Sequence record: NC_042564.1
From: Escherichia phage Bf23
Direction: 5' to 3' (one strand)
DNA length: 14,504 nt
The notes under the pieces were generated by a model. It searched no databases, had not been told where the DNA came from, and saw nothing but the letters and a program-made list of their open reading frames with translations. Every line of letters begins with the position of its first letter. Position 1 is the stretch's first letter. A program made the translations under genes and the position numbers. Positions 3,678-14,447 of this stretch are shown here, in pieces.

Positions 3678-3768
3678 TGGCGGAAGAGGAGAGATTTGAA
3701 CTCTCAAGCCGTTTTACCAGTCAGCCACTTTCCAAGCGGTTTTCGTCGCCAATTCGATTTGCTCTTCC
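3678..3768 (-). tRNA. tRNA-Ser (anticodon GGA), tentative
   Basis: 91 nt class II; encoded CCA, G73; perfect T-arm gagag/atttgaa/ctctc; perfect acceptor 3682-3688/3762-3768; anticodon loop TTGGAAA with one mismatch in stem; 3-bp D-stem. Confidence 0.5.
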
Positions 3769-3801
3769 AATAATAAGATGATGCCTCTATCACACCAGGC
3801 A

Positions 3802-3880
3802 GTTACGCCTCGCTGGGATTCGAACCCATTAAAACAGCTCAACCGAGATAGTAGGTTTAATTTACTCTGACCATCAAATT
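3802..3880 (-). other. orphan T-arm-like element (degenerate tRNA remnant?)
   Basis: tggg/attcgaa/ccca T-arm-like hairpin at 3814-3828 but no pairing partner for an acceptor stem and no anticodon arm. Confidence 0.25.
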
Positions 3881-3957
3881 TGGTGCGTGACAAGGGATTC
3901 GAACCCTCAAAACCCGACTTCTAAGGACGGTATGTATGCCAATTCCATCAATCACGC
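3881..3957 (-). tRNA. tRNA with anticodon TAG (Leu-type anticodon) on a short-variable-arm scaffold; isotype uncertain
   Basis: encoded CCA, T-arm aaggg/attcgaa/ccctc, acceptor 3885-3891/3951-3957 with one G-U, anticodon loop CTTAGAA with one U-U mismatch in stem, 3-bp D-stem, only 5-nt variable loop. Confidence 0.4.
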
Positions 3958-3962
3958 GTATT

Positions 3963-4036
3963 TGGTGGAGAAAGAGGGAGTTGAACCCTCGTTTTCTGCG
4001 TGCAAAGCAGATGTTCTACCATTAAACTATATCCCC
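3963..4036 (-). tRNA. tRNA-Ala (anticodon TGC)
   Basis: encoded CCA, perfect T-arm gaggg/agttgaa/ccctc, perfect anticodon stem tctgc/gcaga with loop TTTGCAC, acceptor shows G3-U70 (Ala identity pair) plus one mismatch. Confidence 0.65.
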
Positions 4037-9872: not shown

Positions 9873-9950
9873 TGGTGGCTCCCCGAGGATTCGAACCTAC
9901 GTACCTTCCAGTTATGAGCTGGGTGCTCATACCATATGAGCTTGAGAACC
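9873..9950 (-). tRNA. tRNA with anticodon CAT (Met, initiator or Ile2 type)
   Basis: encoded CCA, acceptor 9877-9883/9944-9950 with two G-U, D-arm gctc/gagc, anticodon loop CTCATAA; T-stem has only 3 good pairs. Confidence 0.5.
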
Positions 9951-9956
9951 AGAATT

Positions 9957-10045
9957 TGGCGGAAGAAGTGGGAATCGAACCCACAAGGCTATATTTCAAA
10001 CCGACAGATTAGCAATCTGCTGCAATACCGTTATGCTATTCTTCC
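9957..10045 (-). tRNA. tRNA-Ser (anticodon GCT)
   Basis: 89 nt class II, encoded CCA, G73, perfect T-arm gtggg/aatcgaa/cccac, perfect acceptor 9961-9967/10039-10045, anticodon loop TTGCTAA. Confidence 0.65.
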
Positions 10046-13575: not shown

Positions 13576-13650
13576 TGGCCGAGGTGACAGGATTCGAACC
13601 TGCATAAAGGAATTTAGAAGACTCCTGCCTCTCCCTTAGACTACACCCCG
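13576..13650 (-). tRNA. tRNA-Arg (anticodon TCT), tentative
   Basis: encoded CCA, T-arm acagg/attcgaa/cctgc, acceptor 13580-13586/13644-13650 with G-U, anticodon loop CTTCTAA with G-U in stem; D-arm poorly defined. Confidence 0.5.
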
Positions 13651-14152
13651 TTTAAGTATTTTTAAGAACTCTCGTAAAAACTCTTAAAAATACAGACGAT
13701 ACCGGGAGAGTCATAAGTCTCACTCATTAAGTATTTCAAGACAAAATACAGTAACGTCTATTATTTTCCAGTTTAAGTCAAGGTGACTTAGTGGTTATGT
13801 CCTGCGGTATGCTGAGGACTCGGTTAGGCTAGGGTCATGACTCCCCACCTTTTTGCTGCTACTCAACAGGAGTTATCGCGAATTACCTGTGCTATTGTGC
13901 ACCATTAGTGGCATCTCTCATGCCAGCATTTCCCACTTTGTGGATAGTTTGAAAAACTACTCCGATATGGAGAAAGAACTTCACTATCCTAGAATACCTT
14001 CTAAAGTTCTTCTTTAGCCTGGACATAGTTAAATCGTAATAAAACTATTCAGCAGACTGGTTGGTTAGTCTGGAACCAACTACCGCGTGGTTTAGGCAGT
14101 GCGCAACTAACCTCGGAAGCTTTTACGTTAAAAGCATCAGTTATCCAGTTCT

Positions 14153-14224
14153 TACCGTCCGTAGGATTCGAACCTACATCTTCCACCAGTTACGGCTTGA
14201 TAATACCAATTATACTAGGACGGC
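14153..14224 (-). tRNA. tRNA-like gene, isotype undetermined (possible pseudogene)
   Basis: perfect T-arm gtagg/attcgaa/cctac (14161-14177) and 6-7 bp acceptor pairing (14154-14160/14218-14224) but no recognizable anticodon stem; CCA not encoded. Confidence 0.35.
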
Positions 14225-14447
14225 AGTGTTACTACATAAGTGATTTCCACACCCCACTATTTATAAATTAGAGAAGAGTTTAGGGGAGAGGTTTCAGACG
14301 CCCCATTTTATACGTTCTAGCCACTAACCGGGATTGCCGCCCCCTGTGTACTAGTTTTACAACTAACCCACCGACTCTATTCAGTGCACTCCGGTTGGGA
14401 TTCTGCACTCAGCGTAATCGGCTCGCTGTTCCCTAATTTATGAATAT

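Follow-up and report, generated by a model that had tools for sequence, protein, structure and literature searches.

A leucine tRNA gene with a class-I short variable loop in the tRNA cluster of Escherichia phage Bf23

The window examined here is a stretch of 14,504 nt from Escherichia phage Bf23 (Tequintavirus, Demerecviridae; NC_042564.1) that spans the tRNA gene cluster of this phage, in which ARAGORN finds 23 tRNAs on the minus strand. Only one gene in the cluster encodes a tRNA-Leu. It is 77 nt long, carries the anticodon UAG and an encoded CCA end, and occupies positions 3881-3957 (-), exactly the span that ARAGORN calls tRNA-Leu(tag). The same gene is annotated as tRNA-Leu(tag) (BF23_00073) in GenBank record OR083247.1, whose sequence is 100% identical to the window. 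Textbooks describe tRNA-Leu as having a long variable arm, and in its place the Bf23 gene has the short variable loop of a class I tRNA. A first-pass annotation had noted this leucine anticodon on a short-armed scaffold and had suggested that either the anticodon arm was misassigned or the tRNA was an atypical one, perhaps charged with an amino acid other than leucine and thus a possible tool for manipulating decoding.

The RNA encoded by the gene reads GCGUGAU-UG-AUG-GAAUUGGCAUA-CAU-A-CCGUC-CUUAGAA-GUCGG-GUUUU-GAGGG-UUCGAAU-CCCUU-GUCACGC-A-CCA. In the cloverleaf drawn by ARAGORN, the acceptor stem has 7 bp and the D-stem 3 bp, the anticodon loop CUUAGAA is closed by the stem CCGUC/GUCGG with a single U.U mismatch, the variable loop GUUUU has 5 nt, and the CCA end is encoded. 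The D-stem, anticodon stem-loop, and variable loop are those that the first-pass annotation had described. The Rfam tRNA model (RF00005), for which the gathering score is 29 bits, matches positions 3884-3957 with 47.5 bits (window-wide E = 1.1e-7). It aligns in the same register over model positions 1-71 of 71, with its sole non-canonical pair in the anticodon stem. Both programs thus place the sequence among the tRNAs.

The individual parts of the molecule can be located precisely. U8, G9, and the D-arm lie at 3932-3950 (-), where the 3-bp stem AUG/CAU is followed by a G13.A22 mismatch and encloses the loop A14 A15 U16 U17 G18 G19 C20 A20a U21. In layout this D-arm matches that of E. coli class II tRNA-Leu, and most of the nucleotides that establish identity for leucyl-tRNA synthetase (LeuRS) lie within it. 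The anticodon arm, with its U30.U40 mismatch and the loop C32 U33 U34 A35 G36 A37 A38, lies at 3914-3930 (-), and both ARAGORN and Rfam place the anticodon UAG (cta on the plus strand) at 3921-3923 (-). The variable loop G44 U45 U46 U47 U48, at 3909-3913 (-), stands where class II tRNA-Leu has an arm of 13-15 nt; its U48, the partner of A15, has been kept and is invariant across phage and E. coli leucine tRNAs. The T-loop UUCGAAU supplies the partners for G18:U55, G19-C56, and U54:A58, and the discriminator A73 with the encoded CCA is found at 3881-3884 (-).

Whether the anticodon arm is rightly assigned can be judged from covariation. An alignment of 18 distinct relatives, collected by BLAST and pattern search, forms the pairs of the class-I cloverleaf in 96.1% of its cells, compared with 42-50% once the 3' partners have been shifted by 1-3 columns. 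Changes on both sides are seen in 16 of the 20 pairs, and the observed covariation score was reached by none of 500 shuffles. Compensatory changes across lineages occur in all four helices and affect every one of the five pairs of the anticodon stem, which for example becomes UCUCG/CGAGA in VpaE1-type phages. RNAalifold predicted the same cloverleaf from the alignment when no structure was supplied. The nucleotides of the tertiary interactions, A73 (in all 18 relatives), and the CCA end are invariant. Minimum free energy folds other than the cloverleaf are usual for tRNA sequences. Because of this, the single-sequence fold of the Bf23 tRNA, which yields no cloverleaf (z = -1.38), was set aside as uninformative, and the covariation was relied on instead. 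A predictor that assigned a different anticodon with a better-paired stem was looked for with ARAGORN, Rfam, and RNAalifold, and none of the three gave such a result. The suspicion of a misassigned arm can therefore be dismissed, since the anticodon is established as UAG by two predictors together with strong covariation. The gene at 3881-3957 is a real tRNA gene of class-I shape with a leucine anticodon, as the first-pass annotation had read it.

The next question is which amino acid this tRNA carries. Leucine identity in E. coli depends on A73, the Levitt pair A15-U48, the D-loop nucleotides G18G19 and A20a, and tertiary pairs linking the D-loop to the T-loop (PMC9976931). A73 is the key determinant for E. 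coli LeuRS, whereas neither the anticodon nor the long arm is crucial, and molecules lacking the arm are still active (PMC9976931). When the phage tRNAs are compared with the five leucine isoacceptors of E. coli K-12 (from NC_000913.3), U8, A14, A15, U16, G18, G19, A20a, A22, U48, and A73 are found to be invariant, as are U54, U55, C56, and A58 of the T-loop across the 18 relatives and the same five isoacceptors. Phage and E. coli leucine tRNAs also have in common a D-arm with a 3-bp stem, an R13.A22 mismatch (R, purine), and a 9-nt loop. Measured against an E. coli-type tRNA-Leu, the Bf23 molecule has A73, the tertiary core U8-A14, A15-U48, G18G19, and A20a, the T-loop partners, and a leucine anticodon; it lacks the long variable arm, having 5 nt in its place, and has A37 rather than the G37 of the isoacceptors that read CUN codons.

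The D-arm is especially informative. It was ranked for similarity to 69 other tRNAs, drawn from the window, T5, E. coli, and two further phages, and the nine best matches were without exception tRNA-Leu, class II molecules from E. coli and T5 among them. Because of this ranking, the Bf23 tRNA looks like a class II tRNA-Leu from which the arm has been removed, and not like another isotype with a mutated anticodon. Whole-molecule pairwise identity with 60 tRNAs, computed with cheap gap extension, was discarded as meaningless, because the resulting alignments were fragmentary (42-63 columns) and placed Gln, Thr, and Gly tRNAs first. A blastn search with the Bf23 gene against 5,426 E. coli genomes gave no match; recent capture from the host is thus unsupported, and the search sheds no light on the isotype.

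A scaffold pattern in which the anticodon was left free was run over viral genomes (IMG/VR) and bacterial genomes (GTDB). Leucine anticodons were found in 61 of the 62 matches (UAG in 29, UAA in 21, CAA in 10, and AAG in one). One scaffold that carries anticodons of both leucine codon boxes is what would be expected if LeuRS recognizes it independently of the anticodon. Judged from these sequence features, the Bf23 tRNA is most likely charged with leucine.

The sole match with a non-leucine anticodon comes from a metagenome-assembled genome (MAG) of the Paracoccaceae (contig of 3.1 Mb; locus L064, 7227-7303). Its loop is CUAGCAA and ARAGORN calls it Ala(agc), yet it has a leucine-type D-arm, A73, and an encoded CCA, its anticodon stem is poorly paired, and at 3-70 it has G-C instead of G.U. 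The gene either has decayed or encodes a tRNA of leucine identity that reads an alanine codon.

Short-armed leucine tRNAs form a sizable family. The Bf23-type allele is present in about 160 phage records at ≥95% identity, whereas about 55 records have the class II allele of the T5 type at ≥90% identity. In Epseptimavirus phages the same scaffold bears the anticodon UAA, and short-armed UAG versions occur in a 142-kb Demerecviridae phage and in Felixounavirus phages. The UAA paralogue has the loop CUUAAAA, from which the loop of the UAG form differs only by the change of A36 to G. At 13 FelixO1-like loci there are three short leucine tRNAs each (CAA, 78 nt; UAA, 79 nt; UAG, 78 nt), and these make up the entire leucine set of the phages concerned. 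Further examples with CAA and UAG anticodons lie on metagenomic phage contigs of about 10-110 kb, and others in the tRNA arrays of bacterial MAGs.

Two members of the collection deserve separate mention. In IMGVR_UViG_2974642025_000001, the match at 1306-1356 is a hybrid whose 5' part matches the class-I Leu(UAA) gene and whose 3' part matches the class-I Leu(UAG) gene. Its acceptor strands (GGGGGUG and GUCACGC) cannot pair, and ARAGORN makes no call there; the hybrid looks like either a recombination deletion between paralogues or an assembly artefact. The complete genome of the planctomycete Candidatus Uabimicrobium amorphum has a tandem array (locus L062, 524-1119) of five short-armed 74-nt tRNA-Leu genes with the anticodons UAG, CAA, UAA (twice), and AAG, interleaved with two long-armed tRNA-Tyr genes.

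This breadth bears on the idea that the gene is in decay, that is, that loss of the arm by deletion crippled a class II tRNA-Leu, which is now kept only through hitchhiking in the tRNA cluster. The U.U mismatch in the anticodon stem could be taken in its favor, as could the failure of E. coli LeuRS on another type I tRNA-Leu (PMC6614811), the degenerate tRNA-like elements elsewhere in the cluster (3682-3768 and 14152-14225), and the flagging of some cluster tRNAs in the T5 record as pseudogenes or as not convertible to suppressors. A decaying gene, however, would not be expected to persist in 129 phage records at ≥99% identity or to show compensatory changes in all four helices with 96% of cells paired, an invariant set of tertiary nucleotides with A73 and CCA, and three anticodon variants maintained side by side in FelixO1-like phages. 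The conservation, the compensatory changes, and the invariant core make a pseudogene very improbable, and the short-armed phage leucine tRNAs are clearly under purifying selection.

A role for a working leucine tRNA is suggested by codon usage, for which open reading frames (ORFs) of at least 150 amino acids were taken as gene proxies. In 29 such ORFs of Bf23, CUA accounts for 18.8 per thousand codons and 23% of leucine codons, and T5 is nearly equal. The corresponding values for E. coli, from 34 ORFs, are 4.4 per thousand and 4.4%. Among leucine codons, CUA ranks second in use in Bf23 and last in E. coli, and E. coli K-12 has a single annotated gene for a UAG isoacceptor, leuW. The codon also keeps its leucine meaning in the phage: in 25 pairs of Bf23 and T5 orthologues, 55 of the 62 Bf23 CUA codons that differ in T5 are replaced there by other leucine codons, and other leucine codons behave alike (UUA, 54 of 61; CUG, 32 of 34).

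These observations can be set against the suggestion that the tRNA is mischarged and recodes CUA. According to this view, another synthetase, for example ValRS, IleRS, or ThrRS, charges the class-I body, and CUA is partly read as another amino acid. The body of the tRNA does have class-I shape, and its A73, A35, G3-C70, and U4-A69 belong to the E. coli valine set. Precedents also exist among class-I tRNAs with a UAG anticodon, because in fungal mitochondria CUN codons have been recoded by the yeast tRNA-Thr(UAG) and the Ashbya gossypii tRNA-Ala(UAG) (PMC7609411). Those tRNAs resemble that of Bf23 in body and anticodon (PMC7609411) but bear non-leucine marks, either an 8-nt anticodon loop as in the yeast tRNA-Thr(UAG) or the alanine mark G3.U70 read by AlaRS, where the Bf23 tRNA has a 7-nt loop and G3-C70. 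The recoding mitochondrial genomes also have no tRNA-Leu(UAG), whereas in Bf23 CUA sites match leucine in T5 at the same rate as other leucine codons, and the corresponding slot of T5 is filled by a class II Leu(UAG).

The valine resemblance is similarly incomplete, since the ValRS elements C36, G20, and G45 are replaced by G36, C20, and U45, and U4-A69 varies among the relatives. The anticodon nucleotides that belong to the threonine and isoleucine identity sets are not present in the Bf23 tRNA. The anticodons found on the scaffold (UAG, UAA, CAA, and AAG) have leucine alone in common. With a full LeuRS identity set, a leucine-type D-arm, and four leucine anticodons on the same scaffold, charging with another amino acid finds no support. 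The same is true of a decoding-manipulation tool, given that the major determinants of the nearest rival synthetases are missing and that CUA behaves as leucine. We regard mischarging as a very remote prospect.

The evidence favors a functional phage leucine tRNA that is charged by LeuRS, decodes CUA, and supplements a scarce host isoacceptor, a reading to which we assign a probability of roughly 0.83. The proposal that it supplements the host tRNA follows from the contrast in CUA usage between phage and host. An anticodon UAG reads CUA and, by wobble at U34, at least CUG. In outline, a class II tRNA-Leu would have lost its long arm while keeping all the nucleotides that E. coli LeuRS reportedly reads. 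The RNA would be transcribed from the Bf23 cluster beside tRNA-Ala and matured with its encoded CCA; the host LeuRS would then charge it with leucine, and the charged tRNA would decode CUA and at least CUG. The tRNA-Ala(UGC) gene, at 3963-4036 (-) by ARAGORN, Rfam, and annotation, lies 5 nt upstream, and the two genes are probably co-transcribed. Codon supplementation is the simplest function for such a tRNA, and we infer that it would benefit the phage.

Several points weigh against this interpretation. The argument from codon usage is correlative and uses ORFs of at least 150 amino acids as stand-ins for genes, and UUA is as common as CUA in Bf23, yet the phage has no tRNA for UUA. The anticodon stem contains the U.U mismatch. 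Expression or charging data for the Bf23 tRNA-Leu allele were not found in the searchable literature. The sole bacterial type I tRNA-Leu that has been tried with E. coli LeuRS, the tRNA-Leu(CAA) of Streptomyces coelicolor, was not charged, and the E. coli enzyme is said to charge type II tRNA-Leu only (PMC6614811). In a crystal complex, the C-terminal domain of E. coli LeuRS touches nucleotides 47f-47i of the arm (PMC6614811). The S. coelicolor result does not transfer directly, because the Streptomyces identity set differs (A73 is not used) and the phage tRNAs keep the E. coli set.

A further point concerns position 37, which is A in the Bf23 tRNA and G in all three E. coli leucine isoacceptors that read CUN codons (leuW, leuV, and leuU). 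We take this host position to be m1G37, methylated by TrmD. If so, the decoding properties of the Bf23 tRNA may differ from those of its host counterparts, and the phage tRNA would not depend on the m1G37 modification.

The manner in which the arm was lost can be approached by comparing class II tRNAs. Throughout the window and all the arrays examined, serine and tyrosine tRNAs are long-armed, and leucine tRNAs alone are short. Bacterial TyrRS depends on the long arm. The arm is the major identity element of cytosolic tRNA-Ser (PMC9976931). Because the serine and tyrosine tRNAs stay long, arm loss appears to be confined to the one class II isotype whose E. coli synthetase reportedly needs no arm. 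The Leu(UAG) genes of T5-like phages have lengths of 87, 85, 81, and 77 nt, a series that suggests repeated arm shortening. The 87- and 81-nt genes belong to one lineage with a loop like that of the host (UUUAGGU), and most of the difference between them lies in the variable region. We considered and dropped the notion that class I and class II Leu(UAG) genes are mutually exclusive, as a genome of the HildyBeyeler type appears to hold both a 77-nt and an 81-nt gene.

A different account of the arm loss is that it serves counter-defense. Here, the missing arm and the C32/A37/A38 anticodon loop would allow the tRNA to evade host or prophage effectors that read the long arm or a host-type loop, a tentative proposal that we consider much less probable than plain codon supplementation. 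It would add to the leucine reading, because the molecule would still be a leucine tRNA through which CUN decoding survives an attack on host tRNA-Leu, an extension that we hold to be possible but unlikely. The loop CUUAGAA does differ from the UUUAGGU of host leuW at positions 32, 37, and 38, and the same three differences from the host are reported for the tRNA-Leu-TAG of phage Sf14 (PMC12482277). Phage tRNAs have been proposed or shown to dodge tRNA-targeting defenses via loop changes (PMC10264068; discussion of PMC13056530), and several unrelated phage groups have short-armed leucine tRNAs. For the toxin MenT3, the long variable loop is the specificity handle, and deletion of this loop abolishes targeting (PMC11541572). 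A title in the reference list of PMC13056530 also points to SLFN11-dependent cleavage of type II tRNAs. The bacterial Schlafen paper itself (PMC13056530) was not used as support; it reports no specificity for tRNA-Leu or for the variable arm.

Other observations make counter-defense doubtful. An effector of Enterobacteria that strikes tRNA-Leu via its arm was not found in the searchable literature, and MenT3 acts on Mycobacterium tRNA-Ser and discriminates against tRNA-Leu (PMC11541572). The class II Leu(UAG) of T5 also has C32 and A37, which means that the altered loop does not depend on loss of the arm. The graded lengths of the T5-like genes fit relaxed constraint equally well, and some phages hold long-armed and short-armed Leu(UAG) together. 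That the T5-like and FelixO1-like lineages carry "stealth" leucine tRNAs, in which arm loss was selected because the RNAs are still charged by LeuRS and go unseen by effectors, thus seems improbable, though less so than decay or mischarging. If it were true, the LeuRS enzymes of E. coli and Salmonella would charge type I tRNA-Leu efficiently in vivo, contrary to PMC6614811.

The window also contains less orthodox tRNA-like elements. Between tRNA-Ser(UGA) and tRNA-Leu, at 3682-3768 (-), lies a degenerate class II tRNA-like sequence with the acceptor strands GGAAGAG/CUCUUCC and a loop containing GGA. The tRNA-Sec model gives it only 19.7 bits (E = 0.12), and its position matches that of T5 tRNA-Ser2(GGA), which the T5 record describes as not convertible to a suppressor. 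In the spacer 3' of tRNA-Leu, the plus-strand sequence tgggattcgaaccca at 3814-3828 corresponds on the minus strand to a T-arm-like hairpin, UGGG-UUCGAAU-CCCA. There is no tRNA call around it, and the hairpin may be a remnant of another tRNA gene.

Four further elements are not annotated in the Bf23 GenBank record, among them tRNA-Ser(GCU) at 9957-10045 and tRNA-Arg(UCU) at 13576-13650. The third, at 9876-9950 (-), is an Rfam tRNA match (38.2 bits) with the loop CUCAUAA, the anticodon CAU, and an irregular T-stem. ARAGORN missed it, and it adjoins tRNA-Ser(GCU) where T5 annotates tRNA-Ile2(CAU). The fourth, at 14152-14225 (-), is called by ARAGORN as a 74-nt "tRNA-Ser(act)" and scores 39.6 bits with Rfam, which matches the acceptor, D-, and T-arms only and skips 18 nt at the expected anticodon arm. 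The anticodon arm of this tRNA-like RNA is non-canonical, and the element is no credible serine tRNA. T5 has this element too, within a region annotated as the stable RNA "RNAX".

The gene discussed here is routinely annotated as tRNA-Leu, and type I tRNA-Leu is already known from animal mitochondria, from S. coelicolor, and from a Mycobacterium tRNA cluster. According to a 2023 review of tRNA identity, tRNA-Leu is long-armed everywhere except in animal mitochondria (PMC9976931). The statement of the first-pass annotation that bacterial leucine tRNAs have long variable arms holds as a good rule, but S. coelicolor (PMC6614811) and the Mycobacterium cluster (PMC6582537) provide exceptions. In the searchable literature we found no account of a short-armed leucine family in enterobacterial phages, nor of what such a family would imply for E. 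coli LeuRS. Hundreds of related phage genomes from Escherichia, Salmonella, Klebsiella, and Cronobacter carry short-armed leucine tRNAs with the complete E. coli identity set, and these RNAs amount to a natural test of what E. coli LeuRS truly requires. Such compact leucine scaffolds may be of service in the engineering of suppressor or orthogonal tRNAs. They also offer a concrete candidate for the idea that some phage tRNAs are shaped to evade tRNA-targeting immunity; if the Bf23 tRNA merely supplies CUA decoding, it is a case of ordinary codon supplementation. For annotation, the lesson is that phage genes of about 77 nt called "tRNA-Leu" are genuine and should not be taken for mistakes.

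A close comparison is with T5, in which the corresponding slot is annotated as a class II tRNA-Leu(UAG) with the same leucine anticodon. This tRNA (tRNAL1(UAG), T5t10) has 85 nt and a 13-nt variable region, compared with 77 nt and a 5-nt loop in Bf23. Both genes stand directly downstream of tRNA-Ala(UGC), and both tRNAs have C32, A37, and a leucine-type D-arm; the T5 acceptor strand, GGGGCUA, is unlike that of Bf23. The T5 record (NC_005859) lists tRNAL1(UAG) as convertible to an amber suppressor.

The HNH endonuclease gene hegC, which Bf23 lacks, lies immediately 3' of the tRNA-Leu gene in T5. When window positions 3769-3919 were compared with T5 (locus L070, 3037-3671), the homology was found to break between 3768 and 3920 of the window, where T5 has tRNA-Ser2(GGA) and hegC. 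The break possibly marks a recombination junction inside the leucine gene, although the BLAST extension into the 5' half may reflect no more than generic similarity of leucine D-arms. Some other T5-like records (H34 and H35) annotate an HNH homing endonuclease whose span overlaps that of the class-I tRNA-Leu gene. It is plausible that homing endonucleases drive the exchange of tRNA modules among T5-like phages.

The host counterpart, E. coli leuW tRNA-Leu(UAG), is an 85-nt class II tRNA with the same anticodon. It has the same identity nucleotides as the Bf23 tRNA (A73, U8-A14, A15-U48, G18G19, A20a, and R13.A22), a D-arm with a 3-bp stem and a 9-nt loop, and an acceptor stem that starts with GCG. 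It differs in its long variable arm and in the U32, G37, and U38 of its anticodon loop UUUAGGU, and blastn detects no DNA similarity between the two.

Among type I leucine tRNAs, the defining features of which (a leucine anticodon, a cloverleaf, and a variable loop of 4-5 nt) are all present in the Bf23 molecule, that of S. coelicolor provides a bacterial parallel. Its tRNA-Leu(CAA), also with a short variable loop, functions in the cytoplasm of a bacterium, beside type II leucine tRNAs and a single LeuRS, but it is chromosomal, and its LeuRS ignores A73 and needs a leucine-specific domain (PMC6614811). The tRNA-Leu(TAG) of the Mycobacterium cluster has the same anticodon as the Bf23 tRNA, its variable loop is short, and it is encoded in an accessory cluster of many tRNAs, although it belongs to another host phylum and is known from a passing mention (PMC6582537). 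The core tRNA-Leu of Mycobacterium, apart from the cluster-encoded one, has a normal long loop (PMC6582537). Animal mitochondrial tRNA-Leu, such as human mitochondrial tRNA-Leu(UUR), is likewise of class I and has a leucine identity that consists essentially of A73 and A14 (PMC9976931), but it is organellar and floppy, is served by a dedicated mitochondrial LeuRS, and has no sequence relationship to the phage tRNA. The leucine-type D-arm suggests that the short-armed family of phages arose independently from class II tRNA-Leu; it is grouped with other type I leucine tRNAs by architecture, not by descent.

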